64,000 nucleotides of DNA from a bacterium (lineage in GTDB: Bacteria > Patescibacteriota > Minisyncoccia > Phycocordibacterales > UBA6899): positions 2,349 through 66,348 of the forward strand of contig JAYUQG010000014.1 in the NCBI GenBank assembly GCA_043756865.1. The letters run 5' to 3'. Positions 1 through 37,905 of this stretch are shown piece after piece. A model generated the notes under the pieces. It saw nothing but the letters and a program-made list of their open reading frames with translations. It was not told where the DNA came from and did not search any database. Each line of letters starts with the position of its first letter. The stretch's first letter is position 1. Made by a program: the position numbers and the translations under genes.

Positions 1-700
1 ATACAATGAAATATTTACCTTGAAATGTTTTTGCGTCCTGCTGAAGTGAAATGTCAAAAGGATCTGGGGCAATGTTGTCTTCATGTACAATCTTGAGCCA
101 CTCATTTGATAACCCTTTTGAAACGAGCGCACGAGTATAGTCCCCGCCAATGGTTGCGAGCGGTGCAGGCGTACCGAATCCGTCATTCAATAATACCTGT
201 GTTCCTTCTTGAAATTGCACCGACATAGCAACACTACCAGTTGCCACCTTTCCACCAATCATGTTACCGGGGATGCTAAAGATTATTTTTGCAAGAATGT
301 TTGTTTTGCCGGGGTCACCCTGCACTCGCCCGCAATAGCCTGCGGGAATACCTCCTTCAAACGAGACAACTCCTTTCTCGTGGTCAACGAGCGGCTCAGT
401 AGGCCAAAGTGAGAGCAGTGATTCGCCTTTTGATACCGCAGATGCCTTCATCCAGTCTTTTGGGTACGAAATCTTTGCCGCAACCGCATTGACACAGTCT
501 GCACCATCTGGGTCTAGCCGCACCGTAAGTACAAATGTGTCCCCCGGTCCATATTCACCCGTTCTAGGTTCAATGGAAAGCGTCGCAGCAAAAAGCGTTG
601 TCGGCAGTATGTAAACCACAGCAGTGAGCACAAACAGCGCAATTGCTCCAACCGTTTCGCCTATTGTGGTTCGGGATTTAGTAGTTATCTTTGTGTTCAT
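1..700 (-). CDS. cohesin-domain secreted protein, N-terminal part; gene continues past the window start
   Basis: ATG at 698-700 on minus strand; signal peptide MNTKITTKSRTTIGETVGAIALFVLTAVVYILP followed by cohesin-like beta-sandwich (LSIEPRTGEYGPGDTFVLTVRLD...ISYPKDW...SLWPTEP...VSFEGGIPAGY); paralogous to the N-terminus of 31885..33372; absent from the ORF track because it runs off the edge. Confidence 0.5.
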   Translation of the reverse strand, partial: MNTKITTKSRTTIGETVGAIALFVLTAVVYILPTTLFAATLSIEPRTGEYGPGDTFVLTVRLDPDGADCVNAVAAKISYPKDWMKASAVSKGESLLSLWPTEPLVDHEKGVVSFEGGIPAGYCGRVQGDPGKTNILAKIIFSIPGNMIGGKVATGSVAMSVQFQEGTQVLLNDGFGTPAPLATIGGDYTRALVSKGLSNEWLKIVHEDNIAPDPFDISLQQDAKTFQGKYFIV

Positions 701-758
701 TGTGTTGCACTCATTGTATCTTTTCTATTGGCTAGTGACTACTTACCACTGACTGTGT

Positions 759-1940
759 CTACCCAGTCCAATGGAACAAAAGGATAGAGAAGTCTGTGAG
801 GTTCACTCTGCCATCCGAGTTTAAGTCTGCAATGCCGTGGTCTGTATCCCAATGGAAGAGCAATATAGAGAAGTCTACAAGATTCACACGACCGTCCCCA
901 TTCAAGTCGGCATTACCAGGCTCTTTTGCATCTTGGGTGCCCACATAGAAATTTATGGCTTGACTGTATCCACTTTTCGCCTGAGGAGGTGTACCAATTT
1001 GTTCAAACATTCCACGTACGGCATGAAATACCTCATCATCAAGACCTGCAGTTGATAAACTGGCATTCCAGAGCCCCGTCGGACTAGAAGTTCCTGTGCC
1101 GCGGGGTTCTTTTTCTTTGTTCACATATAAGGTGACTTTCGCATTTGGTGCAGTGGTGCCGAGTGCATCGAGCACATCTCCGACAGCTACTTTTTTTGTT
1201 GGGAGATCTATTGTCGGAGGAAGAAAAATATTTGAAACAGTAGTGACTGCATTTTGCGTAACCTGAAAGGTTGTCGTAAACATTACAGACCGTACACCAC
1301 GCGCATCGGTCGCCCAAAAACCAAATGTGGTGGGCCCGGGGCTAATTTCCGAAGTTTCGTAAGAAAAATTAGCATTTACATCCGCCTGTGCAACTGCCAC
1401 AACGGTGCCGTCCTTAAGTACGTTCACGTTTGCACTTGGATAGGCCTTACCCTCAAGCACGACTCGTGTTCGCGCACTTACTGGCACGTTTCCATCAAAT
1501 ACGCCGCCCCCACCACTACCACCTGGAGGTGGGGTTGGGGGTGGAGGTGGGGGTGCGGGAGGTGTGGTCGTCGAAATCGGCGGTGACTCCTGTACGCACA
1601 TATTCGTGCAGAGATCTCCAGAGACATTGTTGCCGTCATCGCATTGTTCAAGATAGAGCGCTTGGAGTGTCGAGTCTCCACAATACGGTCCGTAACCCGA
1701 GCATGTTGCATTGCATCGACGCTGTGCAGTGGTCGAGCCATAGGCACCATCGTTGAACAATCCGTCGTCACATACTTCTCCGGGATTAATAATTGCATCG
1801 TTGCAAATGGAGATGCGAATCGTCGTAGTCGCGAGTATTTGTGCGCGCACAACCGTGGGAACAAAAATGCCCTCACCCATTGGGAGGAGGAACAATGCCA
1901 CTAGCCCCACCCCGAGTACGTTTCGGAAAATATACTTCAT
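759..1940 (-). CDS. secreted dockerin-repeat protein with Cys-rich repeats, Pro-rich linker and Ig-like domain
   Basis: N-terminal signal peptide; repeated CxDGxxNxG...C motifs; PPAPPPPPPTPPPGGSGGGG linker; two C-terminal dockerin-type repeats DLNGDGRVNLVDFSILLFHW / DLNSDGRVNLTDFSILLFHW; lies 58 bp upstream of the cohesin gene at 1..700. Confidence 0.6.
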   Translation of the reverse strand: MKYIFRNVLGVGLVALFLLPMGEGIFVPTVVRAQILATTTIRISICNDAIINPGEVCDDGLFNDGAYGSTTAQRRCNATCSGYGPYCGDSTLQALYLEQCDDGNNVSGDLCTNMCVQESPPISTTTPPAPPPPPPTPPPGGSGGGGVFDGNVPVSARTRVVLEGKAYPSANVNVLKDGTVVAVAQADVNANFSYETSEISPGPTTFGFWATDARGVRSVMFTTTFQVTQNAVTTVSNIFLPPTIDLPTKKVAVGDVLDALGTTAPNAKVTLYVNKEKEPRGTGTSSPTGLWNASLSTAGLDDEVFHAVRGMFEQIGTPPQAKSGYSQAINFYVGTQDAKEPGNADLNGDGRVNLVDFSILLFHWDTDHGIADLNSDGRVNLTDFSILLFHWTG

Positions 1941-1951
1941 GAACTTGAATG

Positions 1952-2992
1952 CTATCGCTTACGTGAAAGGTCTACAACACCGCCTGACGCAACTGGGCGT
2001 CTACGCACAATTGGCTCATCGCGAGGCTCATCTCTTGGTGCAGAATCACGAGGTGTTCGCTCTTGGCGTCGTCTTGGCTTGCGCTTGAGGAATACAAAAC
2101 CCGCCACTATCGCCACCAGAAGTGTGGCGGGAATAATCACCGAAAGTTGATCTCCAATCCGCAGTCCTTCAAAGCCGTATGTCTCGTACCCCGTAATCGT
2201 GCCACGTGGAAGTACGGACATTGCGAGCTCACCTTGCTGCGCAACACGCTTTTCATCTTTTTGGATTGTATACTTTACGCGATAGCCTCCAGGAGGCAAC
2301 CACGTAGGCAAATACGCGAATACTTTTTTGGTATCAAATGGGAGTATTGTTTCAACAACATTTGTACTGAGTGTAGATTCTAACAGCTGCTGACCAGTCA
2401 CATCGTACACATCCATAGTCACCTTTGCAGGTGCGGAAGGTACATTTCCCGTATTTTCAATATACATCGCAAACTTAATTTTCCCAGGAAAGTCGAGCCA
2501 CCATTTGGCGTATCCTTGCTCTGCTTCAAAGAGTTCGACGCGTCGTACTTCAAAATTATATATCTCGTCAACAACATTCAGCTGTACATCAATTTGCGCA
2601 CCGAGCGCCAAAGAAACTCCTGTCGATGGGCCAGTTGAAGAAAATGTACGTATACGAATATTTCCATTATATGCGCCAAGTTTTGCGTCCTCAGGGACGC
2701 GCACCGTCACGTGCAGTTTCACCTGAGATTCACCCTTCGGAAGAATAAACTTCATGCCGCGGTCAAAAGAGAACCATCCTTCGATTGCGGGGAGGTTGAG
2801 TGCAAGTTCTGCGTTTAAGTCTTCAACTGGGTCACTGCGCACAATCACAATCTCCTGCGTGTACTCACTTCCAGGACGCAGTGTGTCATTGTGTACATAC
2901 GGAGGGGTAATACCAAAACCCGCGAATGCAAGATTCACAGTTCCTCCATAAAGGAAAACGCACACGGCAAAAAAAAGTATCCCCTGCCTCAT
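1952..2992 (-). CDS. CscA-like (DUF916/DUF3324-type) cell-surface protein: signal peptide, beta-rich ectodomain, C-terminal TM anchor and basic tail
   Basis: ORF 1952..3040 begins with a TTG; an ATG at 2990-2992 gives signal peptide MRQGILFFAVCVFLYGGTVNLAFA; GFGITPPYV motif near the N-terminus; C-terminal TM VIIPATLLVAIVAGFVFL followed by KRKPRRRQERTPRD tail; same architecture as 39358, 42093 and 43406 genes; start could also be 3019. Confidence 0.45.
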   Translation of the reverse strand: MRQGILFFAVCVFLYGGTVNLAFAGFGITPPYVHNDTLRPGSEYTQEIVIVRSDPVEDLNAELALNLPAIEGWFSFDRGMKFILPKGESQVKLHVTVRVPEDAKLGAYNGNIRIRTFSSTGPSTGVSLALGAQIDVQLNVVDEIYNFEVRRVELFEAEQGYAKWWLDFPGKIKFAMYIENTGNVPSAPAKVTMDVYDVTGQQLLESTLSTNVVETILPFDTKKVFAYLPTWLPPGGYRVKYTIQKDEKRVAQQGELAMSVLPRGTITGYETYGFEGLRIGDQLSVIIPATLLVAIVAGFVFLKRKPRRRQERTPRDSAPRDEPRDEPIVRRRPVASGGVVDLSRKR

Positions 2993-3074
2993 ATAATTAG
3001 GATACTGCAATTGTAACATGCACCACAAAATAAGATGCAAAAGAAGGATGTGGACGAGAAGTGGATATCCGCTC

Positions 3075-3429: not shown

Positions 3430-3562
3430 AAAAAACTTTCATAATTTTGATGGATTTCAGTTTTTTCGCGTCGGGAGTGTTTGAGAAGGTGTATGAGTTA
3501 TACATCATCCAAACCTTTCGACGATGAAAAAACTGAAAGGCGCAAAATTTGAAAGTTTTTTA
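3430..3562 (+). repeat. R2 structured element, copy 1 (nested inverted repeats), just past the stop of gene 3560..5467
   Basis: outer stem AAAAACTTTC (3431-3440) with GAAAGTTTTT (3551-3560); inner stem TTCAGTTTTTT (3456-3466) with AAAAAACTGAA (3527-3537); conserved GTGTATGAG, CCAAACCTTTC and ATTTTGATG blocks shared with copy 2 at 35054..35160. Confidence 0.5.
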
Positions 3563-5467
3563 CCAGTTGGCGCGCTCGCCGACAATACCTATAAGCGTAT
3601 TTTGACCTAAATAGTCACCAGAAAGTGTAATCGCTATGGGAACCGCGATGCCCCAATGTGTCGTACTTGATGCTTGCACACTAACGGAAGTTGATTTTGG
3701 AACGTTAAGCTCGATTTCGGCTCCTGGATTCGCAAGGAGTACCGTCGCTACTCCGTAGGCAAGTGTAGACGAGGCATATCTTTGGTTGGCGATAAAAATG
3801 GTTGAAGTTGCATTTCCAGAGCACGCTGCTGGGTAACCCGGACACATATTTACACCGTATAAAGTTTCATCCATTCCCACATTTCCCGCCGCGCGCAGTC
3901 CTGTTTGGTTTTGAGCTGTGTTTCCCACAGTGACTGTATCTTGCCCTGGTTGCAAACCTCCATAAGCGATAGTGGTAGTAGACACGGTGTATGCGAGAAA
4001 ACTTGTGAGCTCAGTACCTGATGTACTTTCAACGAGTGAGCTTGATGACGCATTGTCGTCGAATGCCCGAGCAGAGGCTAACCAGTTTTCTGCAAAATTC
4101 GGAGGATCTGTTGTGGGGACACCGTTACCATCCGTTGCTTCTGAAATATACCAAAGCGGAAATGTACAATCCCAAATGACATCTGAGTCTGTAGAACCGA
4201 GGCATGAAGTTGAACTTGCAACACAGTTCATGCTGTGCGTGGCAACAGTAGTCGTTGCAGGGCCAGGGTAACAATTGTTGGCATTATACTCCCCTGCTAT
4301 GTCGCAACCTGCCTGCGTTATTCCTGAGCGGTAAGTATTTGTGAACCCTGAAATAATCTCGCTTCCCGCAGCAAGATTCTGGCAACTATTCTGATCAGTG
4401 ACGGTGTATCGAACAGAAAATCCTTGCGTCTGAGTTGCAATGCCAGTAAGTGTGAGTGGTCCAGTCTGATCAGTATCAAGAAGTGAAATTGAAGCTGCAG
4501 CGATAGTTGGGGTCACATTGCTTACAAAAATCGAGGAATCCGCCCCCTGCGATCCCCCCGATGCCGCATGTGAACCGTGTTGGTCAATAATAAATCCAAA
4601 TGCCGTGTATGTTCCATCACGATAGGGAATCGCAAGCAATGTTGAAGTGGAAGGATTAGCTGCACTAAACGTGGATGTAGCCCACACTCCCCCTGGTCCG
4701 CAATTTGTGCCGGTAAAATCATTTGCACGGCAGACAAATAGTCTCACATCGTCTTGGTCAGCACCGATGTCCCCTGCGTATGTGTCAGTATCGGAGGAAG
4801 TTGCATAGAATATCACGGTACCACCCGGGTTTGTGGGGGAATTATCCATAAAAAAGGTAAATGTCGGGCGGTGGTTCACCACAAAAGGAGAACGCTCCCC
4901 CTCAGCACCGGGAGTGGTGGAACCTTGTCGAAATGCGGCATTGCAGGAGGCTCCGGGGCTTGTGCCGTCGCAAACCCAACCAAACCACGCATTAAACTCT
5001 GCGTTGAATTGCGAACCGATGCCTTCTGTTGTTGTGGTTGCAGCAGAAGCTCGAGCACCATTGGTGGTGGTTGCGGAAACCGCCCATTGGTTTGTATCGC
5101 CACCGTTACAATCGGGACGTCCGAGTGGACGTGGCGTGGGCAAGCCGCTTGTTTTGCAAATAAGTAGAAAGTAATTGTCGTTTGAAGAGTCGTTTGCTGA
5201 TCCTAGCCAAGTGATGACGCTTCCTGTATTTGTTGGTGTGGTTGTGGATGAAGGCGTGCTTTCATGTGCATCTTCAGCCCATTGCGGCGGAGTATTCAAT
5301 ACGGTAACTGAAGTAGTGGCTGAATCAGCCAATGCCACGTTCCCGCGGGGAATGTCCGCAACGAGCCCAAAACAAATAACAAATACGCCAAGTAGCGTTG
5401 TCGCGATACTGATTTTTCCCGTGATTGTGCTGTATCTTTCCCTCAACATATAGAAACTTAAGACCAT
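3560..5467 (-). CDS. large secreted Thr/Ser-rich hypothetical surface protein with N-terminal signal anchor
   Basis: 635-aa ORF; hydrophobic N-terminus ISIATTLLGVFVICFGLVA; many Cys pairs; no recognisable catalytic motif. Confidence 0.5.
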   Translation of the reverse strand: MVLSFYMLRERYSTITGKISIATTLLGVFVICFGLVADIPRGNVALADSATTSVTVLNTPPQWAEDAHESTPSSTTTPTNTGSVITWLGSANDSSNDNYFLLICKTSGLPTPRPLGRPDCNGGDTNQWAVSATTTNGARASAATTTTEGIGSQFNAEFNAWFGWVCDGTSPGASCNAAFRQGSTTPGAEGERSPFVVNHRPTFTFFMDNSPTNPGGTVIFYATSSDTDTYAGDIGADQDDVRLFVCRANDFTGTNCGPGGVWATSTFSAANPSTSTLLAIPYRDGTYTAFGFIIDQHGSHAASGGSQGADSSIFVSNVTPTIAAASISLLDTDQTGPLTLTGIATQTQGFSVRYTVTDQNSCQNLAAGSEIISGFTNTYRSGITQAGCDIAGEYNANNCYPGPATTTVATHSMNCVASSTSCLGSTDSDVIWDCTFPLWYISEATDGNGVPTTDPPNFAENWLASARAFDDNASSSSLVESTSGTELTSFLAYTVSTTTIAYGGLQPGQDTVTVGNTAQNQTGLRAAGNVGMDETLYGVNMCPGYPAACSGNATSTIFIANQRYASSTLAYGVATVLLANPGAEIELNVPKSTSVSVQASSTTHWGIAVPIAITLSGDYLGQNTLIGIVGERANW

Positions 5468-5614: not shown

Positions 5615-6823
5615 TTATTTATATCTAATCGCGTCAAGCGGATTTAAGCTTGCAGCGCGTCGGGCAGGAAATACTCCTGTCATAAAACCTACAATTGCAG
5701 AGAAAATGGCGATAAAAGTGAGAAATGTCAGAGGAAATGCAAAAAGGGAAACTGATTTTCCTCCAAAATTTGATGCGGCAACATTCATAGCACTATTAAT
5801 AACAAACCCAATAGTCCCGCCAAAAATAATACCCATGATTCCGCCAAGAAATCCCACAATGACTGCCTCTGCGACGAAAAGAATCTTGATGTCCCCCGAT
5901 GATGCACCGAGCGTGCGCATAATACCGATTTCTGCGGTGCGCTCGAGGAGGGTAACCGTCATGGTGTTGAACATTCCGATTGCAGATACCGTAAGCGCAA
6001 TACCTCCAAATACTGCAAGCACTGCCTGAATACCTTGAAAAATCTTATTCGCTTGTTCAACAGTCTTTGAGAGGGCAGTAACAACGAATCCTTTTTTTAC
6101 AATTTCTGCCTGGGTTGCGTCCAAAAACTCACTCTTTGTTATACGCACTTGCGCCTTATCGTAAGACTTTATTTCCAGATGTCCTGCGAGTTCAGCGAGT
6201 GTGATAATCGAAGCAATAAAATTTTCTTCGTTGGTGACCGCAACAATCTTATATGCCTTATTGATGGTCACCTCCTCGGAATCGTCCGTACCCTCGATGG
6301 GGACAAACACGCGAAATGTTGCCATCTTGCCCATGACGTCTTGTGGTTCTTTGTATCCAAAAAGCTTGAGTACCGCTTTTGTCACAATAATGCCATCTTT
6401 GTCCTTTGCTTCATTACCATCTTTAAAAAGCTCTCCCACAACAGCATTTGCACCGGTGTAGCGAAAGTATGGAGGTTCGGCACCCTGTAGAAAGGTATTC
6501 CCTGTAAGTCCGTCAATTGTAATAAGCGCAGGAAAACTGGCGAGTGGTGATACGTCCTTTACATCGGCCAGCCCTTCGAATTCTTTAATCGCTTTATCGG
6601 TAATCTGCACGACGCGCGAAGGAGGATTGTTTACCGCAAGTGAGAGTAGCGTCTCACCGAAAACGATTTGTTCGAGAATGATATTTTGTAGACCAAAGCC
6701 GAGTCCCACCAGTGTTACCACTGCGCCAGTACCCACACCCATGCCCGCAATAGTAAGCCACGTACGAGTGGGGTTCGTCTTAAACGCACGAGTGGAAAGC
6801 ATTGCGATGTCTTGCAGGCGCAT
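5615..6823 (-). CDS. ABC transporter permease, FtsX/MacB-like
   Basis: N-terminal TM, large extracytoplasmic loop, three C-terminal TM helices, C-terminal ...ARRAASLNPLDAIRYK typical of the FtsX family; ATG at 6821-6823 preceded by TTCTCTTCTATAATAGAATCAT promoter motif. Confidence 0.6.
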   Translation of the reverse strand: MRLQDIAMLSTRAFKTNPTRTWLTIAGMGVGTGAVVTLVGLGFGLQNIILEQIVFGETLLSLAVNNPPSRVVQITDKAIKEFEGLADVKDVSPLASFPALITIDGLTGNTFLQGAEPPYFRYTGANAVVGELFKDGNEAKDKDGIIVTKAVLKLFGYKEPQDVMGKMATFRVFVPIEGTDDSEEVTINKAYKIVAVTNEENFIASIITLAELAGHLEIKSYDKAQVRITKSEFLDATQAEIVKKGFVVTALSKTVEQANKIFQGIQAVLAVFGGIALTVSAIGMFNTMTVTLLERTAEIGIMRTLGASSGDIKILFVAEAVIVGFLGGIMGIIFGGTIGFVINSAMNVAASNFGGKSVSLFAFPLTFLTFIAIFSAIVGFMTGVFPARRAASLNPLDAIRYK

Positions 6824-6952: not shown

Positions 6953-8251
6953 ATGTCCCTCGACATTTATGTAAAACGCCGCGCACGGCTTGCCAAAAAA
7001 TTGGGTACAGGTGCGGTTGCAATTATTCCCAGTGGACGAATGGTGCAGAGGAACGGTGACGTGCATTACCCATTTCGCCCCGATAGCGACTTCTTCTACC
7101 TTACAGGTTTCTCGGAACCAAATGCGCTCATTGTCCTTACGGGCGGTAAAGCAACATGCTCTGTGTTGTTCTGTGCACCGAAGGATCCAGAGAAGGAGTT
7201 GTGGGAGGGAGAGCGCATTGGCCCGAGAAAGGCGAAGCGTAACTTTGCATTTACTGCAGCCTACCCTGCCACATACGACGAAGATATGTGGCAACGCATT
7301 CGCGTATTCACAAACCCCGCAGTGAAAAAAGGCTTGCTTTCTTTTGCCGCGGGAGCACAGTCTCTCCTTCCTGAAGTAGTTGACCCCTCCGCAAAGAGCG
7401 CTACTGACCTGGCTGCATGCATTGGTGAAATGCGTCTTATCAAGTCTGCAAATGAGATTGCCACAATGCAGAAGGCGGCGAGTATTTCTGCGCGCGCACA
7501 CAAGGCGATACTTTTCATTGCGAAACCGCATATGCGCGAGTATGAACTTGAGGCCGAGCTCGCCTATCGTTTTCGCATCGCGGGCGGAGACCCACTCCAT
7601 GCCTACCCCCCGATTGTTGCGTCAGGAAAAAATGCATGCACGCTCCACTACACCAAAAATGACGCACTCCTTCGGAGTGGAGACCTCGTTCTCATTGATG
7701 CGGGTTGTGAGTATGAGGGATATGCCTCTGACATCACAAGGACGTTCCCCGCCAACGGCAAATTCACCAAAGCCCAGCGGACTCTATATGACATGGTGCT
7801 TCGTGCGCAGCTTGCTGCAATCAAAAAAGTGAAACCTGGCGTGCCACTCCATGAAGTGCACACCGCTGCAGCACTGGTCATTGCAGCAGGATTGTTGGAA
7901 CTTGGTTGGGTATATGCTGACGACGCATGGGAAGTTATTGCACGCAATCTTCATCGCCCCTACTTTCCGCATGGTACGAGCCACTGGCTAGGAAGTGACG
8001 TACATGACTCAGGCAATTACGAGCGGAGCGAAGATACGCGCAAGGCTATGCGGGTGCTTGAACCAGGAATGGTCATTACCGTGGAACCGGGACTCTATGT
8101 ACGCCCACAGAAAGGGATTCCGAGGGCATTCTGGAACATTGGTATCCGCATTGAAGATGATGTTCTTGTTACCAAGGACGGAAACACGGTACTCTCAAAG
8201 GAGGCGCCGAAAGATCCGGACGAAATTGAAAACATCATGGCTGCCAAGTAG
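6953..8251 (+). CDS. pepP: Xaa-Pro aminopeptidase (M24B family)
   Basis: 432 aa; HGTSHWLGSDVHD metal-binding motif, EPGMVITVEPGLY and IRIEDDVLVT pita-bread fold motifs. Confidence 0.7.
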   Translation: MSLDIYVKRRARLAKKLGTGAVAIIPSGRMVQRNGDVHYPFRPDSDFFYLTGFSEPNALIVLTGGKATCSVLFCAPKDPEKELWEGERIGPRKAKRNFAFTAAYPATYDEDMWQRIRVFTNPAVKKGLLSFAAGAQSLLPEVVDPSAKSATDLAACIGEMRLIKSANEIATMQKAASISARAHKAILFIAKPHMREYELEAELAYRFRIAGGDPLHAYPPIVASGKNACTLHYTKNDALLRSGDLVLIDAGCEYEGYASDITRTFPANGKFTKAQRTLYDMVLRAQLAAIKKVKPGVPLHEVHTAAALVIAAGLLELGWVYADDAWEVIARNLHRPYFPHGTSHWLGSDVHDSGNYERSEDTRKAMRVLEPGMVITVEPGLYVRPQKGIPRAFWNIGIRIEDDVLVTKDGNTVLSKEAPKDPDEIENIMAAK

Positions 8252-8370: not shown

Positions 8371-8502
8371 TAGCAGTCGCAAAATTTTGGATGGAATGCG
8401 AGGCGACAAGGGTATGATGTTTGAGCGGACGTACTCCTCGTACGTTCGCCAAACTCATGCCCGCAGTCAACAAAGCAGTCCGCCAAAATTTTGCGACTGC
8501 TA
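8371..8502. repeat. perfect 20-bp inverted repeat pair flanking a 92-bp spacer
   Basis: TAGCAGTCGCAAAATTTTGG at 8371-8390 and its exact reverse complement CCAAAATTTTGCGACTGCTA at 8483-8502; the right arm overlaps the stop codon of the ABC ATPase gene; the spacer carries its own imperfect hairpin GGACGTAC-TCCTC-GTACGTTC. Confidence 0.5.
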
Positions 8503-9828
8503 GTGGTGGGCTTCGCCGGTGCGTGGAATACCCAATGCAATCAACTTCTCAATCAACCTTGTCACATCAAACGACTGTTTCTTGTTTAACCCCACTCCCC
8601 CTTCTTTCGTGGAAAGTTCAATTTGTGCCGAAAATTCATCACGTTTTGTAAATCCGCCAATACGTTGCGCGATGAAGTCTTCAAAGTGTTGTTTTTCGGA
8701 AGGTGCGAGCGAAAGAGAGAACTGATCTGAAACAAATTCAGCAATACGGTTTATAAATTCCATGTCGCGGATCTGTGTCCCTATTGCATTCTTGCGTCGA
8801 CGAAAACGCTGAATATCGAGGGAATGCTCGACAACAGACATCAATTTTGAAGACATTTCTGATGCGCGTGCCACAGGAAGTCCGACTCCTCCGCTTTCAA
8901 AATCTGCCATGAGTATGCGCAGGTATGCTGAGCCATCCATACGTCCGGAAATAACTGCCTCAGTTACTTTTTGTAAGCGCATAATTTGATCAAAGGTCAA
9001 TTCCTCGATGAGGTAATTGACGATGCTCTTCACCTGCAGTTCGTTTGGTGAGTCATAGGGATAAATACGGGCAATCTGCTCAATCTCGGTGACTATTGTC
9101 GTACCGGGTGCAAGCTTGAGAATTTGTTTCTTTTCAGGGTTTGGCACAATACGCTCAATCTTTCCGTCTGCCATATACACAATGCGGTGAGCATATGGGA
9201 GGTACTTTGCATCGTGTGTCACAAGAATAACCGTCTTTTTATCTTTATCGTTTATCTCTGCAAGTGTATTCATAACCTGTGCCGCAGTGATGGAGTCAAG
9301 GTTTCCGACCGGCTCATCAGCAATCAAGATCTGTGGATCATTCACCAAGGAGCGTGCGACAGAAACGCGCTGCTGCTGTCCACCCGAGAGCAGTGTCGGA
9401 CGTTTGTTTGCAACGTGGTCAATCATAAAACGGCGACACAATTCCATGCCACGCTCATAACGCTCATTGGGAGCAACTCCGTCAAAAATAAGCGGAAGCG
9501 CAACATTGTCCAAGACCGTAATAGATGGAATAAGGTTAAACGACTGGTACATGATACCCATCGTCTTACGTTGAAAGTGCACCATCTGCATTGGCGTAAA
9601 GTCATAGATACTTTCACCATTCACGTACATCTTCCCCGCCGAAGGCTCCAGCACTCCGAACATACAATAGAGCAGGGTCGACTTTCCGCAACCAGATGGA
9701 CCGAAAAGAATGATGTATTCTTGGTCAAAAATCTCGACGGTAGCACCCTTATTTGCCTTGAATTCATTCTCCTTTCCAAGGTTATAGGTAATTTCAATCT
9801 GGTCTCCAAAAATAATCGGTTTTGCCAT
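8500..9828 (-). CDS. ABC transporter ATP-binding protein (MacB-type ATPase) with roughly 200-aa C-terminal extension
   Basis: Walker A GPSGCGKST, signature LSGGQQQRV, Walker B LIADEP; ATG at 9826-9828 (MAKPIIFGDQ) is preferred over the ORF-track start at 9858 because the conserved TATAAT motif sits between them. Confidence 0.6.
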   Translation of the reverse strand: MAKPIIFGDQIEITYNLGKENEFKANKGATVEIFDQEYIILFGPSGCGKSTLLYCMFGVLEPSAGKMYVNGESIYDFTPMQMVHFQRKTMGIMYQSFNLIPSITVLDNVALPLIFDGVAPNERYERGMELCRRFMIDHVANKRPTLLSGGQQQRVSVARSLVNDPQILIADEPVGNLDSITAAQVMNTLAEINDKDKKTVILVTHDAKYLPYAHRIVYMADGKIERIVPNPEKKQILKLAPGTTIVTEIEQIARIYPYDSPNELQVKSIVNYLIEELTFDQIMRLQKVTEAVISGRMDGSAYLRILMADFESGGVGLPVARASEMSSKLMSVVEHSLDIQRFRRRKNAIGTQIRDMEFINRIAEFVSDQFSLSLAPSEKQHFEDFIAQRIGGFTKRDEFSAQIELSTKEGGVGLNKKQSFDVTRLIEKLIALGIPRTGEAHH

Positions 9829-9838
9829 GGCTCCCTCT

Positions 9839-9844
9839 ATTATA
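9839..9844 (-). promoter_or_regulatory. -10 TATAAT box 10 nt upstream of the ABC ATPase start codon
   Basis: minus-strand reading GATTCTCTTCTATATAATAGAGGGAGCC-ATG. Confidence 0.4.
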
Positions 9845-9917
9845 TAGAAGAGAATCAAAACCTCCCATGGGGAAACCCACTTTTCATAAGTGCGCTACAG
9901 AATTAATGCACTTTGAT

Positions 9918-10621: not shown

Positions 10622-12121
10622 CTATTTTCCGATGTTCTTAACCCAGCCAAACTGCCCCTCAAAGTTCTCCAAAATAATATCAATAATTGACTTCTCTTTG
10701 TTCGGTGTAAATAACACAAAGTTTTCCGACTTCGTCTTGTTCTTTGCATCATCGCGGCACTCTACCCAGAACTGATATACAGTGGAAGGCAGAAACTCTA
10801 CAACGACCTGCACATGAGATGTGCGTGGCTCTTTTTCCTCGCCAAGCCCCGTCGCTTCAGTTGCAGGATTCAATCCTTCGCGGAAGTAGAACTGGCAATA
10901 CGACTCCTCATCGGTTCCCCATGACACGATAGTTTGCACTTTCGCATCAGCGGAGGGATACAACGTAGACTCGTTCGACACTTTAGAAATTATTGGGGGA
11001 GCAATGTCTTTTATGGTTGTGAAGAAAAGCTGATTCGAAGTGACCTTCTCCCCCACCGCATTTTCTGCTTTCACCACCGCACTATAACGCACACCGAGTG
11101 ACAGTCCCGCAATTTTGACCTGCTGTGACGACGAGAAAATCGGCGAACCAGCAGACTTTATCTCTCTGGTCTTAATATTGGTGTACTCGACAACACCTGA
11201 TGCAGGAATATTTGTACGCCACGTAAGCGTTGCGGAATCTTCTTCGACTTTCGCAACACGAAAATTGGTGATAGTCGGGAGCGCAGCCTTCGTGGTGAAT
11301 GCACTGTCGCGGGACACTCCCGTGAGTTGCAACTCACCCTCAGACGCAACTTGAAAATGGTAGGTCGTACCTGCAATAAGTCCTGTGACGCGCACTTCGT
11401 GATCTTTGATGCGCTCTCCCTCATCTCCCGACTCGGTAGTGTAGGGATCCTCTGCGTCGGGGTTGTATTCTGATTCACGCACATAACGCACCACCGAACT
11501 TGCGTCGAGGTCGGTCGCCCAGCTAATCACGGCATAGTCGCTTCCTACCTCTTTCACTCTCGGACTACCTATGATGCGCGGAGCCTCCAGAATTTTTTGT
11601 GCAACTTCACCAAGTTCTGCCGCAACCATACGTACACCCTCGGGAGTCTTCAGTTCTCTAATTGATGCAATCGCGCGCTCAATAACCATACGCTCTTCTG
11701 GGGGAATATCTTCAATATCTTTAATATTCATCACCGCCTTTGTCGCTAGCACGTAGTCGCCAGAAAGTGCCTGATTCCCACCATAATCCTGTGAGCCAAT
11801 ACGGATATGATAAAAAACGGAAGGCTCAAGATCATCCAGAAGGACGCGATGCTTTTTCTTGTTTGGAAGTGGGTCTCTCGCCACACCGTAATCTTTGGTG
11901 AGACCGAAATTCACCTCTGAATCTGCTTCTTCGTCAGTTTCCCATGTGATTAATGCGGAAGTGGCGGTGGGAGAAACAATCTGAATATTTGAGAGTTTTG
12001 GCGGAATCCCGTCTCCTGACACCTGCGCAAAGAGTGAGTGCGGACCGAAAAGTCCGTACCCAAAGAGGCCTCCCACGATTGTGAGGAGTAAAAATGACCC
12101 CAATGTGCGCATGCGCGACAT
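10622..12121 (-). CDS. secreted protein with four fibronectin type III-like repeats
   Basis: ATG at 12119-12121 (MSRMRTLGSFLLLTIVGG signal peptide); repeated ...TDEEADS..., ...YHFQV/YHIRI FN3-like units; promoter motif TCTCTATATAATAGAGAGAGT directly before the ATG. Confidence 0.55.
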   Translation of the reverse strand: MSRMRTLGSFLLLTIVGGLFGYGLFGPHSLFAQVSGDGIPPKLSNIQIVSPTATSALITWETDEEADSEVNFGLTKDYGVARDPLPNKKKHRVLLDDLEPSVFYHIRIGSQDYGGNQALSGDYVLATKAVMNIKDIEDIPPEERMVIERAIASIRELKTPEGVRMVAAELGEVAQKILEAPRIIGSPRVKEVGSDYAVISWATDLDASSVVRYVRESEYNPDAEDPYTTESGDEGERIKDHEVRVTGLIAGTTYHFQVASEGELQLTGVSRDSAFTTKAALPTITNFRVAKVEEDSATLTWRTNIPASGVVEYTNIKTREIKSAGSPIFSSSQQVKIAGLSLGVRYSAVVKAENAVGEKVTSNQLFFTTIKDIAPPIISKVSNESTLYPSADAKVQTIVSWGTDEESYCQFYFREGLNPATEATGLGEEKEPRTSHVQVVVEFLPSTVYQFWVECRDDAKNKTKSENFVLFTPNKEKSIIDIILENFEGQFGWVKNIGK

Positions 12122-12130
12122 ACTCTCTCT

Positions 12131-12136
12131 ATTATA
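12131..12136 (-). promoter_or_regulatory. -10 TATAAT inside the palindrome CTCTCTATATAATAGAGAGAG, 9 nt before the FN3 gene start
   Basis: minus-strand reading TCTCTATATAATAGAGAGAGT-ATG; the palindrome CTCTCTATA/TATAGAGAG could also be an operator. Confidence 0.4.
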
Positions 12137-12171
12137 TAGAGAGACCTCGTTCACGAAAAGGCACAACCCTC

Positions 12172-15100
12172 TTAATTCGCAATAAAGTAGTTAGTCCCCG
12201 AGTGTGTGGTTGCAGCCGTACCGTTTGGAACTCCAAGCCCCCAATACACGTCTTTAAAGAACGGGTTTGTCGACGTAGGCTTCGTCACGCCGATATTATA
12301 CGGATTACTCGTAGTTGCGAGGAGGTTACAACCCGCACATCCCGAATAGGTGAAGGTTGAAGTGGCATACTTCTGTTGGTTGACGGCAATTGTCGAAGAG
12401 GCTGCGGTCATCGGAGACCCTGACAACAAGAGATTCAAGATTGTATTTCCCGTGTTTGTCACTGTCGTTGTCGAATTTGCCGCACCCGTATCTGCGCCTA
12501 CGGTAATTGAGCCGTAGTTCAGGCTTGAAGGAATGGTCAGCCCCTTAAGTGTGTACACATCCTGTGATGAGGATGCTCGTGCATGCGAGTTCGACGTATC
12601 CCATACGTCGATGAGCGCCTGCCAGTTTTCCGCTACGAATGTACTTCCAAAGTCAGTTGGGTCTGCAAAGTAATACATATCCGCGGTGCATGAAACCGTA
12701 CAGGAGTTCCCTGAACAGTTAATAAAGCTACATGAACTGGTGCTGATTTGATAACAGTTATTGTTGTCGGCGGTGCAGGCTGTCGAAGAAGATAGTCCCG
12801 AACGGAAAAACGTTGAGGATGCAAAAGAGAGGTCTGCATAACCGTTGTAATCAGTAACAGTTGAAGTCGCAAAAATCGTCGTTGTGGCACCTTCCGTCAG
12901 TGCAATGCTTGCGTTGTTGTTGAATGAGAAATTAGAAAGGACTGGTGCATGCAAAATGCGCAACTCAGCAACCTTGGTGTAATTATCAAGTGCACTACCT
13001 GAATTGGTGGTACGGAAACAGTAGGCATCCTGTGACGCAAATGCCGTCATCTGGAAGTTATATTCCACTTCAGTAAATTCACCTGATGCAAGCGACACAT
13101 TGCCCGTTTGATTTGACGGGTCCTCAAGTATTTGGCCGTAAGTAAACGTTTGCCCCGTCGGGATAGACAGTAATTGTGTTGTCGAAGACTTGTCACTGAA
13201 CTGTGTAGATGTTTTCATACATGCAGCACCTGAGCCACAACCCGCTCCGGAAGTCGTGGGTACGTCAACATAGCTTCCCCCAGATACTGATTCACAATTC
13301 GGTGAAACCGACTTCGGTGCAACCTGTAGTCTGAAGTTATTATTGTTAATTGGTGCGCCCGAATTTCGCACGGTCACGCGGAGGCGGAGATTTTCGTTAA
13401 TGAGCTGATTTGCCAGTGTTGTATTTTCAGCTGTCTTCCATGTTGCACCAGAGTCCGCCTGTTCTAACCCAAATACTGCGCCCGGTGCCGTGGCAATGTA
13501 CTCTCGAGCAGACGGGATATCCCAGCCTCCATGCTGACCCCAATATGCAAATCCTATCCCACCTGACGTATATGAGGAATCTGTGGCAGATGTTGTGGCA
13601 AATACGCTACCTGCTGAGTCGTACACGGTCACATTAATTTGATTGTTCGAGAGCCAGTTGATCGATGCCTCATACCACCCTGTCGCGTATGTGACACTGG
13701 TTGTTGCAAGTTGCGTCGCTCCGTCATTGCGACCATTATTTGCCGCATTCTTTGCTATGACGACTTTATCTGTCCCCGAAAATGGGGTGAGGCACACAGC
13801 ATAATTTTGATGCAAAGTTATGGGAGATTGGATAGCGAAAAGAAAACACGGCTCATTGGATCCACCGGCTGCAATATCAATATACTGAAAGAACCTAATC
13901 GTAGTATCGCGCCCCACTCCAGCAGACATCTGCCCGATACCGTCGGTGGTCTTTCCTGAAGCCTCATTACCCAGAGAGGCATCAATGCCACGTGTACGCT
14001 CGTAATTAAAGGCTGTAGATTGCTCAAAAAGAGTAGTGTTTCCAGAATATTCTGACATACTTCCATCCTCGAAATCGTCAAAGAATTTGAACGTACTGGT
14101 GCCGCTGGTTCCTCCGGCTACCGTCGCATGGCCGTAGTACATAAAGATATCTGCCATACCGGAAGCAGGAAGTGCCGGTACTTTCACCCATACGGTTGAT
14201 GATGCTGCTGCAGTAAGGCTCTCTATCCAATACGGAATAGATGTCGTTCCGGACGAGTCCGTGAATCGTAAATCATCGAAGTCACTTTGCATATCAGAAT
14301 CGTAGACAACATTAAATTTCACCTCGATGTTTACCTCAGACGAGGTTGCGTTGTTGTTGATTCGCACGCGCTTACGCTTTGACCAATTTTGGTCATACCA
14401 TTCAGTCGAAGGAACACCCTCTGCTCCGTTGTCATTTCGCCATCGGTAAGTCCGCTGATCAGAGAACAGACATGAACTATCGGTCCATCGGATAGACCCA
14501 CATCCATCATTTCCGTCGTTATCACGGGACTCAAGCGCCATATTGCCGTATTCACTTGCAAAAGTGATGGCATTTGTTGTCGTACCGATACGCGAAACAT
14601 TTGCTCCTTCTATTGCTGTGGTTGTGGCAAATCGTACGTAGAATATTTGACCTGACGCATTTTGGTCTATGGTGGTTGACGCGATGGTGATCATGCTGCC
14701 ACCCGATAGTCCGAGCTCAAAGTCCCCGTTTGAGAGTGAGGTGATGGTCGTCGTGCCACTCATATCAAGTCCCGCGGTATTCATGTTTCGGAACTGATAG
14801 TACTGCGCATTGATGTATGAGGAGCTGAGTGAAAGCCCATAGTTACCTGTCGTCGCACGATCAACTGTTGTAGACGCCGTACTAATACCTAACATCTGGA
14901 GCGTTGATGCATTTGAGAATGCTGCAGCCGCAGAAGGACCAAACCGCACATTCACCTGACGCGAACTACCGCCGAGTGCGGTGCCGTCGAAATCGGTGGC
15001 GTAGCTCCAATAGTCGGTACCCGTTGTGCGCGTGTATGCTCCATAAATGTGGAGAGTACCATCCACCGCTGCATGGTCTTGTGCATACACCGAAGTACCC

Positions 15101-18100
15101 GTGCCAAGCTCGTATGCAGCTGCAGAAGAATTCCAGTTGCGCACTATCGTGTTTGTACCAAGACGGATTATGCCATAGAGGTCTCCACCTGCTGTTTTGC
15201 TGTTCATGTTCAAACTGGTGCCTGAGTTGAGTGCGAGTCGGGAACCACTCCACGTAGTGGAGGCACCACCCAGATTGTTGGTAAATATTCCTCCGACTGC
15301 AAGTGCAGAAGAAGATGCTTGGATGAAGTTTCCGCTTGCAATAGTCATACTTCCTGTTGTTGTCGCAGATGCAGAAATATTCACAGTCGCAGCAGGAGCT
15401 CCTGCGACATACACTCCCGTAAGCGTTGAATTTCCTAGTGCCACAAGCGACGTTCCTGAGGTAGGGTTGAATGTTACAAGCGACGTCGTGGCTACGGCAA
15501 TGGTACCCGTCGCGATAAATGACCCACCAACGGTAAATGCTGCATTGGGGAGCGTTGAAGTTCCTGATGCAAAAATGACGTCGCCGGTAGCTGTGGCATT
15601 CGTATCAGTAAATGTAAACGTTCCTACGTCTGCGATAAAGAGATTGGCAAGACTCGAGCCATTCATGCGTATGATTCTTCCCGACGATGTGGCAGTCATA
15701 CGAATAGTTCCTCCATTTGCTGTCACTCCCCCACTTTGATTGTTGAGGTCTGTTCCGATTGCGAGTACGCCCGTCGGTAGTGTCGTGGTGCCGTTTTTCA
15801 AAAGTACTGCCCCTGTTGCGGTTGCATTTGTATCGAGGAAGGACCACCCGCCTCCGACTCCATCGAATTCAAGGTTCGCAAACGCAGAGGTAAGAGCGCG
15901 GATATTTTTCCCCGTTGCGGTAGACGTAAATTTCACCACGCCGGAATTGTGCAAGAATACACCGCCAGAGTTATCAAAAGTCCCGCCCACGGCAAGCGTG
16001 CCCGATGGGAGTGTTGTGGTTCCCGCAGAGAAAGTAAGGTTATTCGAGGTAGTTCCGACACCACCAATATTCCATGTACCACCACTGCCGCTCATGGTCA
16101 TGTTGTAAAACGTGAGTGAAGATGATGCCGAAACAAACTTGCCTGTTGTCGATGCGTTAAAGAAAAATGTTGAATTCGCAGGTGCAACCGAAGCCCCGCT
16201 CGCTGCGTAGAAAGAGCCGGCCAGTGTGTGCGTCTGTGTACCCGCCGCACTCCACGTCGAACTTGCGTACAGTTTCACCGTACCATCACGATCACTGCCC
16301 AGTGCATTACCATGTACGGTTACATCCCCTGCAGGTGCAAAGACTTTGCTGGTCCAAACAATCAGTGTGGTGTTCGATGGAAGCACAAGCGTATCTGGTG
16401 CTCCGGTGGTTGCCTTGAAACGAATATCGGTGTCTTGGTCGGAATCGTATTGATTCATGTTTGCAATCGAAAGTGCTGTTCCTCCTTCGTGGCGCACAAT
16501 AACTCGATCGCGATAGAGATGCATGTTTGCGATATTTGTTGCGGGGTCAACCGTGACGTTTGCCGCGGTAGTTGAACTGTTGGTGTCGAGATAAAGTGTC
16601 AGCACATCCCCTGGGTTAAAGACGACACTCGAGATTGAAAAAGCTCCCGTCGTGGAATTACAAGCCGATGTATATGCTCCAGCACCCTGTACTCGCAGTC
16701 GTACCGTTTGGGTCGACCCATCACAGGTTGGACCACCAACAGGAGTAATTCCCTCATCACCATAAACGTTACCTGAAATGGTAATATTCGCGGCTGAGTC
16801 GTCCCACACAATGTAACCGGGATCACCCCCTGGGTCAGAGTCAAACGCTTCGCCCGCAAGCACACCGAGTGAGGTCGGAGTCCCCGCAAAACGCCAAATT
16901 GATGCTGAGACTCCGGTGGCCTTAACGTTAAACCCTGAGCCCACACCTGTTGAAGTCCCAAAATAATTACGACTGAATATCTTAAGGGGATTTGCATCAA
17001 TTGTCGCACCCGCAACGGTAATCATACTTCCAGCCGCAACCCCAAGTTCGAAGTCTACGTCATCCATGAGATTCACAACTGGTGTTCCCGAAAAATTGAG
17101 TCCATTTCCGTCCACCCCACGGAAGCGTACGTACTTCATAGTTGTCGAACCACCAGAAATATTGAGTGCGTAGGTACCGAGCGTTTGTATGCTAAGGCTT
17201 GTCGATGCAGTATTTGTCCCGAGTATTTCAAGAGCACCGGTACCGGAAATAGAGATACTTGAGGCAGTGGCAAAGCGCACATTTGCCTGACGCGAGCTAA
17301 CGCCAAGTGCGGTGCCGTCGAAATCAGTGGCGTAACTCCAATAGTCAGTGCCTGCGGTACGCGCGTACGACCCCCAAATATACAGTTCGCCTGAAGTACT
17401 CGCATGATTCTGTGAATACAGACTCCCCGTAGCTGCGACGGCGGTCGTTGTTGCCGACGAGGCCCACATGCTTATCTTTGTACTTCCCCCCACTTGGAGT
17501 GTTTCATAGCGGTCACCCCCAAGAGCCTTCGTGTTCATTGCTGAAGTGACTCCAGAGTTCAAGTAGAGAGTCGAGCCTGTCCACGTCGTTGCACTTCCGC
17601 CTACAGCGTTGGTAAATACACCGCGCACTTCAAGTGTTGTGCCCGATGCCATGACAAACGATGATACCTGTGTGATGGAGAAGTTATTCGTAGTGGTTGC
17701 ATTTCCGAGTATCGTCCATCCGCCGATTGCAGCATTAAATGCTGCATTGTAAAACGCTGATGTACTCGGTGTAATTGTGCGTCCAGTGGTAGTTGCGACA
17801 AAAGAAACGGTTCCTGCGGACGGGGTATATGTTCCCTGATTGTACCAGTCACGATAAATATTAAAGGCGGCGCTATCAGACCCAACCAATGTTGCACTGC
17901 TCCTAATAATGAGGTCACCTTCGACATTCACTATGGGGTCATTTGTGGTAACGGTGGTCGTTCCACTATTTACTCCATCCCCCACCGTTAGGCTATTTCG
18001 CACGGTAAATGTTCCTGCCGAAAGCGAATATGTCGGACCACCCGCTCCACTTGGCGCAAGATAGAGACGATAATAATTTGCCGCAGCAACCGTCGTATTT

Positions 18101-33379: not shown

Positions 33380-33895
33380 TTAAGAACCCGAGTCTACCTT
33401 CTCGACATGCATACGCATTTTATTGTTTGCATGACCCTTGAGTGGTAGATGGAGTACGAGTACGCCGTCTTTGACCTTTGCTTGCGCAGCCTGTGCGTCT
33501 ACTTCTTGAGGAAGAATAATCTGGCGGAAAAATTTACCCCAAGCACATTCTTCGAGAGTAAATCCGTCGTGCTCTTCGCTTGCGTGCTGCACTCCTTGCG
33601 AGATTGCAACAACACCCTCGATTTTCACCTGAATCAAGTCTTCGGGGCGATGTGAGCTGCCGGAAATAGTAATGACATCATTGTCACCCTCTATGGACAC
33701 ATCAAGATCTTTGATTTCCGCACCGGGAACCTGAGCATAGATGATAATTTCTGTATCACTTTGCTTCACATCGACGGGGAGTTGCGAGACGCCACTCGGC
33801 ACCTCAGATTTAGCTGGTAGGCTTGCCGAGGAGACCGTATGGTCGTCCGAGACTCCCACGCCCTTGCCCTTGAGCTTTTGTAAAAAAGAACTCAT
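33380..33895 (-). CDS. Hsp20/alpha-crystallin family small heat-shock protein
   Basis: alpha-crystallin domain DVKQSDTEIIIYAQVPGAEIKDLDVSIEGDNDVITISG...GKFFRQIILPQEVDAQAAQAKVKDGVLVLHLPL. Confidence 0.6.
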   Translation of the reverse strand: MSSFLQKLKGKGVGVSDDHTVSSASLPAKSEVPSGVSQLPVDVKQSDTEIIIYAQVPGAEIKDLDVSIEGDNDVITISGSSHRPEDLIQVKIEGVVAISQGVQHASEEHDGFTLEECAWGKFFRQIILPQEVDAQAAQAKVKDGVLVLHLPLKGHANNKMRMHVEKVDSGS

Positions 33896-33992: not shown

Positions 33993-34340
33993 TCAAGTTG
34001 TGGAGAACAAGTGGATACTGCCCAGCAACTCAGTAAAGTTGCCTGCAATGGTCACGCGATTGACCGTGCGGGTAATCACTCCGTGTTCAATGAGGAAACC
34101 TTCCGCCCCGACAGAGTAGTCGCCAGTCGCGAGGTTAACGCCGTCGCCCATAATGCCGATGACGAGTAGTCCGTACGCAATATTTCGAATAAGTCCATCA
34201 CGCAGGATGACACTTGTGTGATCACCGCTTAGTACCCGCGGAGCAAAACAGACGTAAGTCTGTTTTTTATGACTGACAAAAACGTGTTGCCGTGCGTTGC
34301 TAGATGAATTTTGCGCAGTGCGCGATTGCCTGTACGTCAC
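33993..34340 (-). pseudogene. remnant of a TldD/PmbA-family metalloprotease gene (C-terminal roughly 75 aa only)
   Basis: AYGLLVIGIMGDGVNLATGDYSVGAEGFLIEHGVITRTVNRVTIAGNFTELLGSI matches the conserved C-terminus of PmbA/TldD ([49 protein letters not shown]) but stops early and lacks the N-terminal roughly 370 aa; its 5' side overlaps the collagen-like gene. Confidence 0.5.
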
Positions 34341-37866: not shown

Positions 37867-37905
37867 GAGTGTATTATACGTGATGTATCACCAAAGTGGC
37901 GCCTG

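Follow-up and report, generated by a model that had tools for sequence, protein, structure and literature searches.

The question raised by this locus is what cohesins and dockerins, the interaction modules of cellulosomes, are doing side by side in a member of the Patescibacteria, in a stretch of DNA that shows no domains of carbohydrate-active enzymes (CAZymes). The stretch, hereafter the window, covers 64,000 nucleotides (positions 2,349 to 66,348 of the forward strand of contig JAYUQG010000014.1, assembly GCA_043756865.1), and almost all of its genes lie on the minus strand. We propose that two secreted dockerin proteins (DocA and DocB) and a set of membrane-anchored cohesin proteins (CohA, CohB and CohC) form a non-cellulosomal cohesin-dockerin tethering system at the core of a cell-envelope gene cluster in the Parcubacteria/Paceibacteria (Patescibacteria; Candidate Phyla Radiation, CPR), a reading to which we assign a probability of roughly 0.6. 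The genes and modules on which it rests are listed below. The gene at the edge of the window was completed from a public Logan contig (L001), whose overlap of 5,894 bases is identical to the window and which extends 2.2 kb beyond it.

759..1940, minus strand: DocA, a secreted protein of 393 amino acids (aa) with a signal peptide, Cys-rich DUF4215/TIGR02232 repeats (eight invariant Cys), a Pro/Gly linker, two immunoglobulin-like (Ig) domains of the Big_6 type and a C-terminal dockerin
762..908, minus strand: dockerin module of DocA, residues 345-393 (Pfam Dockerin_1, above the gathering threshold)
1581..1829, minus strand: Cys-rich DUF4215 / 'myxo_disulf_rpt' region of DocA, residues 38-120, seen in Pfam, in NCBIfam and in the family alignment
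1..700, minus strand: CohA, the first 233 of 359 residues (the rest from L001:5195-6274), with a signal peptide, a cohesin (residues ~38-192, window 125..589), an Ig-like domain, a C-terminal transmembrane helix (322-347) and a short tail
35180..36922, minus strand: DocB, with a signal peptide, an N-terminal domain (residues ~1-230) like that of the neighbouring protein W391, a Pro/Gly linker, two Ig domains and a dockerin (35183..35329)
31885..33372, minus strand: CohC, with a signal peptide, a cohesin (residues 34-166, window 32875..33273), a poly-Pro linker, a beta domain with an Ig domain of the Big_13/OmpL47 type, a transmembrane helix (395-413) and an 82-aa charged cytoplasmic tail
Beyond the window on L001, 42 bp downstream of CohA: CohB, 548 aa, laid out like CohA, anchored by a transmembrane helix and carrying a single cohesin

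A six-frame motif scan and a family hidden Markov model (HMM) found exactly two dockerin and two cohesin open reading frames (ORFs) in the window. These are the four genes that a preliminary description, made from the letters alone, had singled out: one ending in two dockerin repeats, its downstream neighbour with a signal peptide and a cohesin-like domain, a second dockerin protein, and a membrane-anchored cohesin protein with a cytoplasmic tail. All four identifications held. In the HMM search which that description had called for, with Pfam gathering scores of 22.9 bits for Dockerin_1 (PF00404) and 24.1 bits for Cohesin (PF00963), DocA (32.6 bits), DocB (27.1 bits) and CohC (32.1 bits) exceed the threshold; CohA and CohB fall below it, and CohA is identified by its fold and by homology to CohC.

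The dockerins of DocA and DocB combine tandem Ca-binding repeats, a passing HMM score and a position at the C-terminus. DocA ends in DLNGDGRVNLVDFSILLFHW-DTDHGIA-DLNSDGRVNLTDFSILLFHWTG, and its last 49 residues consist of two near-identical Ca-binding loop-helix repeats (DLNGDGRVNLVDFSILLFHW / DLNSDGRVNLTDFSILLFHW) separated by a 7-residue spacer; in each, a 12-residue loop of the form D-x-N-x-D-G-x-V-N-x-x-D is followed by a helix FSILLFxW. This module is almost invariant across the family: in 38 aligned sequences D345, D349, D356, D372, D376, D383 and N353 do not vary, and N347, N374 and N380 are kept in 90% or more. The remainder of DocA is recognizable through DUF4215 (E 1.5e-9) and Big_6 (E 3.5e-7) in Pfam and through the cysteine-rich acidic repeat TIGR02232 in NCBIfam. 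Its homologues number more than 1879 (46-76% identity), nearly all of those listed share the dockerin+DUF4215 architecture (PF00404+PF13948), and they are annotated merely as 'cysteine-rich repeat protein' or as hypothetical.

On the cohesin side, the CohA ORF starts at 700 on the minus strand and runs off the window, its full length of 359 aa describing a type I membrane protein. An AlphaFold2 (AF2) model of CohA, calculated from a 45-sequence alignment, reached a predicted local distance difference test (pLDDT) score of 85. Its top 50 Foldseek matches in the PDB all contain cohesins, with TMt values of 0.45-0.78 for single modules and E-values down to 2e-9; cellulosomal cohesins of types I, II and III are among them, as are 2xdh, a non-cellulosomal cohesin from an archaeon (TMt 0.78), and, at rank 2, the cohesin+FN3 double module 2w1n. 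The nine-stranded jelly-roll fold of cohesins is thereby found in CohA, and the other cohesin proteins are homologous to CohA or CohC. The CohA and CohC cohesins align over 184 residues with 34% identity (E 1e-16), and CohB matches its paralogue CohC across the whole ectodomain (E 2e-36). We accept CohA, CohB and CohC as homologous type I membrane proteins with one cohesin each, which stands at the distal, N-terminal end, above an Ig-like stalk and the transmembrane helix. The CohA family alone has at least 452 members of ~350 aa, with C69/C123, GGIPxGYCGR, LNDG.G and DKQSG as invariant motifs. An extension of the gene at 1..700 into scaffoldin-like repeats outside the window, raised in the preliminary description, can be dismissed, as the complete gene on L001 encodes a single cohesin and is followed by CohB, again a single-cohesin transmembrane protein.

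The two sets of proteins also differ in topology: the Coh proteins have a signal and a C-terminal transmembrane helix, and the Doc proteins an N-terminal signal alone, which in DocA is the sole hydrophobic segment. DocA and DocB are exported, and their only possible anchor is the C-terminal dockerin. Since the carriers of the cohesins are anchored in the membrane, tethering at the cell surface is the natural reading.

This arrangement is not confined to one genome. With one genome scanned per species, relatives of CohA turned up in at least 227 species-level genomes, and 80 loci were returned, in which ORFs were called and labelled with the proteins of the window; these loci are the basis of all gene-order counts given here. 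The following genes of the window belong, together with those above, to the cluster that emerged.

8500..9858, minus strand: ABC ATPase of the MacB/LolD/FtsE type, 452 aa (PF00005, 1e-28)
5615..6823, minus strand: FtsX/MacB-type ABC permease with a MacB periplasmic core domain (PF02687, 1.7e-14; PF12704, 5.8e-13)
3560..5467, minus strand: P635, with an N-terminal transmembrane or signal segment and a Cys-rich, beta-type ectodomain of ~600 aa; first gene of the conserved core
1952..3040, minus strand: P362, with a signal peptide, two Ig-like domains, a C-terminal transmembrane helix and an Arg/Pro-rich tail (346 aa in the public gene call, which starts at 2992)
39358..40704, minus strand: W448, a P362 paralogue with two Ig-like domains and transmembrane segments
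40583..41710, minus strand: W391, 375 aa, a secreted beta protein of two domains, the conserved C-terminus of which reads TLTY(V/I)xTPxF; its orthologues lie between DocA and CohA in many species
42093..43403, minus strand: W436, a P362 paralogue with an architecture like that of W448
43406..44827, minus strand: W473, a P362 paralogue, likewise similar to W448 in architecture
44827..50199, minus strand: W1790, a large secreted protein of 1790 aa with homology to the C-terminal domain of W391 over its last ~180 residues
50196..51953, minus strand: cluster protein of 585 aa with a transmembrane segment, an acidic low-complexity region and a beta domain with WQ repeats
51916..52392, minus strand: cluster protein of 158 aa with a weak HTH_17 match and a transmembrane segment

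The conserved order begins with the ABC ATPase, the FtsX/MacB permease, P635, P362 and DocA, continues with a member of the W391 family (375-390 aa, secreted; in many lineages), CohA and CohB/C, and ends with a transmembrane, helical protein of ~220 aa (again in many lineages), a small cohesin protein termed cohS and two more conserved proteins. Of the 65 informative loci in other species, 58 have DocA at most three genes upstream of CohA, and in 37 it is the immediate upstream neighbour; an adjacency kept to this extent is not due to chance. CohB/C directly follows CohA in 59 of 67 loci. P635 is present in 52 of the 80 loci, with P362 immediately downstream in 46, and the FtsX permease directly precedes it in 25 of 29 informative loci, the ABC ATPase standing upstream of FtsX in other loci. 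The closest relatives of CohA, at ~60% identity, come from the Lloydbacteria; others are found in the Kaiser-, Adler-, Nomura- and Campbellbacteria, in the Spechtbacterales, in unclassified Paceibacterota/Parcubacteria and in many records labelled 'uncultured Candidatus Saccharibacteria'. Given how many of these third-party annotation (TPA) records carry the cluster, their labels should be treated with caution. Full clusters of the Parcubacteria type also occur on two contigs labelled Acidimicrobiales (L022, JBLIMJ010000001.1) and Gammaproteobacteria (L072, CAYVIA010000014.1), which are probably mis-binned CPR contigs. The ~220-aa protein, with an N-terminal transmembrane segment, a helical region and two Cys, was seen between CohB/C and cohS in 29 loci (e.g., L026 8781-9449, L027 8752-9432), and no homologue of it was found within the window. 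Scans of the cluster for promoters and terminators remained at background level.

In the genome studied here the cluster genes are spread over three places: 1-9.9 kb (with ~2.2 kb more outside the window), 31.9-36.9 kb, which holds DocB and CohC, and 39.4-52.4 kb, which holds W391, W1790, the three P362 paralogues and the two further conserved families; the 585-aa and 158-aa ORFs of the latter are matched by family HMMs built from the clusters of other species (E 9e-52 and 4e-36). The DocB/CohC pair is tied to the main cluster by the homology between the N-terminal domain of DocB and the first half of W391, and in other species a DocB-related gene of the W391 family and a CohC-type gene sit within the main cluster.

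In most other species the cluster further contains cohS, a protein of 225-260 aa with an N-terminal hydrophobic segment, a cohesin homologous to those of CohA/B/C and a C-terminal dockerin of two repeats, in other words a natural cohesin-dockerin fusion. It occurs in 55 of the 80 loci; judged by eye, the dockerin end is present in about 57 of 60 ORFs of this type, and it exceeds the Pfam threshold in six of the ten sampled. In all, a cluster encodes three or four proteins with a cohesin and two or three with a dockerin. Paired dockerin and cohesin sequences were available from about 60 loci.

A comparison of modules across the 31 loci with all components shows the DocA dockerin to be the most conserved (71% mean pairwise identity), above the Cys-rich head of the same protein (58%). 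A dockerin more conserved than the head is the pattern expected of a module with a conserved protein partner. The highest value among the cohesins is that of CohA (48%), followed by CohB/C (41%) and cohS (34%). On account of this matched conservation, the DocA dockerin and the CohA cohesin are the likeliest primary pair.

We suggest the following scenario. DocA and DocB would be exported by the Sec pathway, and their dockerins, once loaded with Ca2+, would bind the cohesins of the membrane proteins, holding the Cys-rich/Ig heads of DocA or the adhesin-like heads of DocB at the cell surface, with cohS as a possible adaptor or chain-extender between layers. Because the neighbours are conserved together with these genes, we favour one envelope complex over a free-standing pair; parts of it would be the MacB/FtsX-type ABC transporter, P635, P362, which resembles the WxL-interacting proteins (WxLIP) of Gram-positive bacteria, and two secreted proteins, W391 and W1790. 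Its role would be to build or attach the outer surface of monoderm, ultra-small and probably host-associated cells, and not to degrade polysaccharides. The preliminary description was right that the dockerin carriers bear Cys-rich repeats (in DocA) and Ig domains in place of enzymes; its generic surface-assembly scaffold gives way to a specific multi-gene cluster of conserved order. A bolder version, which we offer tentatively and consider doubtful, would see in the cluster an undescribed envelope machine that is a hallmark of the Parcubacteria/Paceibacteria: a layered surface structure, for instance a coat resembling an S-layer, a fibre or an organelle for attachment to hosts, in which CohA/B/C, cohS (potentially as a head-to-tail polymer) and the WxLIP-like proteins assemble Cys-rich (DocA) and adhesin-like (DocB, W391, W1790) secreted subunits, and which the MacB-type transporter services or energises. 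If true, cohesin-dockerin binding would be a primary principle of envelope building in a major lineage and not an accessory of cellulolytic Firmicutes.

How firmly tethering can be maintained depends on whether the modules bind one another, and several observations weigh against it. The pairing of cohesin and dockerin and the choice of partners are inferred from conserved adjacency, from the cohS fusion and from matched conservation. The Pfam cohesin threshold is missed by CohA (16.4-17.6 bits), CohB (14.7 bits) and cohS (15.8-19.7 bits), and a profile of the CohA family (45 sequences) detected no solved cohesin by sequence. Relative to CohC, CohA contains an insertion with a conserved Cys pair, GYCGRVQGDPGKTN, which could reshape the binding face, and a spacing of 27 residues from the first loop to the second makes for an unusually compact dockerin. 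In this genome cohS was not located, the public contig stopping 156 bp past the stop codon of CohB; the end of an opposite-strand ORF in this last piece is not dockerin-like, and cohS was not found within the window either. P635 has no detectable relatives of known function in NCBIfam or in a Pfam scan of its family. Dockerin-like modules, moreover, are said by Peer et al. 2009 to be present in many genomes without known cohesin partners, and such orphans are common. One could read all this as a lack of binding: the dockerin would simply form an EF-hand-like, Ca2+-binding end of the protein, lending it stability or attaching to glycans of the wall or the host, the cohesins would be generic beta-sandwich spacers, and their adjacency would reflect a shared envelope function, a reading into which the weak scores of EF-hand families on the same dockerin segments would also fit. 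We regard it as unlikely. The top fold matches of CohA are all cohesins and not other beta-sandwiches, the two modules are fused in cohS, they are inherited together in fixed order over deep divergence, and the most conserved module of DocA is the dockerin and not its presumed functional head.

If the modules do bind, the cargo might still be enzymatic. Dockerin-bearing hydrolases encoded elsewhere could be loaded on the membrane cohesins as a minimal, cellulosome-like display and digest polysaccharides or the host cell wall. Cohesin and dockerin domain proteins in a metagenome-assembled genome (MAG) of another CPR group, the Shapirobacterales, have indeed been read as a cellulosome in a metaproteomic study (10.1101/2021.08.21.457207), and our inspection of the present genome covered 64 kb plus 3 kb. 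In the large ORFs of the window, however, Pfam revealed neither catalytic CAZyme domains, as the preliminary description had stated, nor carbohydrate-binding modules (CBMs). The dockerin carriers of the window and of the 80 related loci (~800 kb) are limited to the non-enzymatic DocA/DocB and cohS types, and the listed homologues of DocA keep a constant architecture free of enzymes. CohA, CohB, CohC and cohS each have a single cohesin, without a CBM. Lacking a multi-cohesin scaffoldin, enzymes and CBMs, the system is not a cellulosome, and enzyme display in this reduced form appears very improbable. Finally, the genes could be an artefact of chance motif matches or of non-coding ORFs, in favour of which nothing speaks except that CohA scores below the Pfam threshold; full-length homologues with conserved domain order, numbering in the hundreds to thousands, confident structure models of CohA and W391 and conserved synteny refute it and leave it a negligible chance. 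Tethering of secreted proteins to membrane-bound cohesins remains the reading that we prefer.

The neighbouring proteins add to the picture of the cluster. A MacB-type ABC transporter is encoded, with an FtsX permease, a MacB core domain and a cognate ATPase; the best NCBIfam matches of its genes (MacB, LolCE, DarD, LolD, FtsE) all stay below the equivalog cut-offs. In the ATPase, residues ~20-257 match ABC models, and the C-terminal half (~200-215 aa) has no family match. ATPase and permease are adjacent in other species and separated here by a gene for an M24 Xaa-Pro aminopeptidase on the opposite strand (6953..8251, plus strand), which looks like a local insertion into the cluster. P362 has hydrophobic segments at residues 21-39 and 299-317. 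For W391, 41710 is most likely the start rather than 41758, which matches the 375 aa of the public protein P0241. The ORF of W448 overlaps the 3' end of W391 by 122 nt and has a signal-like segment at residues 104-122, for which reason its true start probably lies ~100 codons downstream.

The AF2 model of W391 (pLDDT 91) shows two beta domains; the best Foldseek matches in the PDB are MSCRAMM N2N3 adhesins, BslA and TasA, with low global TM scores. These matches are compatible with a role as an adhesin or fibre subunit and are not diagnostic of one. Sequence-level links to solved structures yielded nothing useful for CohA, CohC, P362 or W391. NCBIfam has no names for P635, P362, CohA and cohS, and Pfam scans of the W391 and P635 families returned noise only.

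Several other genes stand near or between the cluster genes. The interval between DocB and CohC contains a small heat-shock protein of the HSP20 family (33380..33895, minus strand) and a 223-aa protein (34300..34971, minus strand) with an N-terminal transmembrane segment and collagen triple-helix (G-x-y) repeats. Two tandem FGE-sulfatase (formylglycine-generating-enzyme-like) paralogues (36997..38841, minus strand) immediately precede DocB and share its strand. A giant ORF of 6246 aa (12172..30912, minus strand) has two DUF2341 domains and an Ig domain similar to Ig_Rha78A_N, and neither a catalytic domain nor a dockerin was found in it; beside it, at lower coordinates (10622..12166), lies a 514-aa protein with fn3/purple-acid-phosphatase-N domains. 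Towards the far end of the window are an amino-acid permease with a fused Usp (universal stress protein) domain (57982..60276, minus strand), a 664-aa ORF without a family match (60495..62489, plus strand) and a LexA-like S24 peptidase (62659..63225, plus strand).

Among known surface systems, the neighbours of the cohesin and dockerin genes most recall the WxL clusters of the Lactobacillales, which consist of a small WxL protein, a large WxL protein and a WxLIP (PF06030 and PF11797) with the architecture DUF916-DUF3324-transmembrane segment (Hassan & Williamson, PMC9772566, PMC10599100). P362 and its three paralogues share with WxLIP a signal peptide, two Ig-like domains and a C-terminal transmembrane helix. 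In size, P362 (346-362 aa) falls into the range of ~340-365 aa that we took as typical of WxLIP, for which 337-365 aa are given (PMC10599100), and the paralogues as called have 436-473 aa. Profile comparison (hhalign) with seven WxLIPs, from annotated WxL clusters on enterococcal, Melissococcus and lactobacillal plasmids, gave a collinear full-length match for the P362 family (97.3%, E 2e-11). With the signal peptide and the transmembrane helix removed, the match of the ectodomain is modest (60.8%, E 8e-5); domain 1 reached 52% with PGBD (E 1.4e-4) and domain 2 22% with HBD (E 1e-3), as against no more than 0.5% for the controls with swapped domains or unrelated Ig-containing proteins. In Pfam, WxLIP_HBD (E 0.019) and WxLIP_PGBD (E 0.086) each appear faintly in one of 30 family members. 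Judging from these profiles, a distant homology of P362 to WxLIP is plausible but unproven.

A second likeness is the pair formed by W391 and W1790, one small and one large secreted protein with a common C-terminal domain (cf. PMC9772566). The idea that W391 is itself a WxL-domain protein, suggested by its C-terminal TLTYVATPxF, was rejected (~1% with hhalign and no Pfam match to WxL, PF13731), and neither W391 nor W1790 is similar in sequence to WxL domains. In contrast to the WxL clusters, LPXTG proteins and sortase are absent here, and cohesin and dockerin modules are absent there. In enterococcal WxL clusters, the WxLIP is followed, directly or past a sortase, by a 150-195-aa hypothetical protein and a 'helix-turn-helix domain' protein of ~480 aa (L082 7588-9489, L083 8780-10709, L086 8720-10727); the Parcubacteria clusters have a 133-158-aa protein with a weak HTH_17 match and a transmembrane segment beside a protein of ~570 aa, a possible parallel by description.

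With MacB, FtsEX and LolCDE the transporter shares a permease with FtsX and MacB_PCD domains, an ATPase nearest to DarD, LolD, FtsE and MacB, and a genetic coupling to extracytoplasmic proteins. It differs from them in the additional ~215-aa half of the ATPase, and its tie to the cohesin-dockerin proteins is one of conserved adjacency alone. Within the CPR, an essential dockerin protein, SEML1_0315, is known from the saccharibacterium Southlakia (PMC10633639). With 927 aa, many Ig domains and an unrelated gene neighbourhood it was rejected as an orthologue and serves as a parallel only. Full-text searches of open-access papers and preprints turned up no paper that ties cohesins or dockerins to Parcubacteria or the CPR in this way, the nearest being the studies of the Shapirobacterales MAG and of the Southlakia protein.

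Compared with the cellulosome of Clostridium (Acetivibrio) thermocellum, the principle is closest to that of OlpA and OlpC: a secreted protein is held, through its dockerin, by a cell-bound protein with a single cohesin. Both have the jelly-roll fold of cohesins, 3ul4 and 4dh2 being among the top fold matches, and the dockerin is built in both from a duplicated Ca-binding loop-helix. Dual-binding type I dockerins have near-identical repeats, as DocA does. In C. thermocellum the anchor consists of S-layer homology (SLH) domains or is attached by sortase, whereas here it is a C-terminal transmembrane helix; the compact dockerin with its 7-residue linker between the repeats, the reduced-genome CPR host and the neighbourhood of a MacB-type ABC transporter and WxLIP-like proteins are further differences.

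Cohesin and dockerin modules outside the cellulose degraders, including enzyme-free ones, were reportedly described by Peer et al. 2009, and the kind itself is not new, since such modules are known. Non-cellulosomal cohesins, namely those of Archaeoglobus fulgidus (2xdh) and of Clostridium perfringens GH84C (cohesin-FN3, 2w1n), are also among the best fold matches of CohA. These cases, however, are scattered genes or toxin/glycosidase complexes, whereas the present modules belong to a fixed, operon-like cluster found throughout a lineage. What appears to be new is the single-cohesin form anchored by a transmembrane helix, the mini-adaptor of cohesin and dockerin, the fixed cluster with a MacB-type transporter and WxLIP-like proteins, and the conservation across a whole CPR class. 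Cohesin-dockerin biology would in this way extend to a membrane-anchored, enzyme-free and operon-encoded form, with a hint that the WxL/WxLIP surface complexes of Gram-positive bacteria are distantly linked to it. Surface building and host attachment in the CPR/Patescibacteria are largely unexplained, and most of their surface proteins lack annotation; here a well-understood and tractable cohesin-dockerin lock stands at the centre of a cluster conserved in sequence and order across the class, and DocA and CohA offer handles for finding the structure in situ and an entry point to the surface biology of the Parcubacteria.

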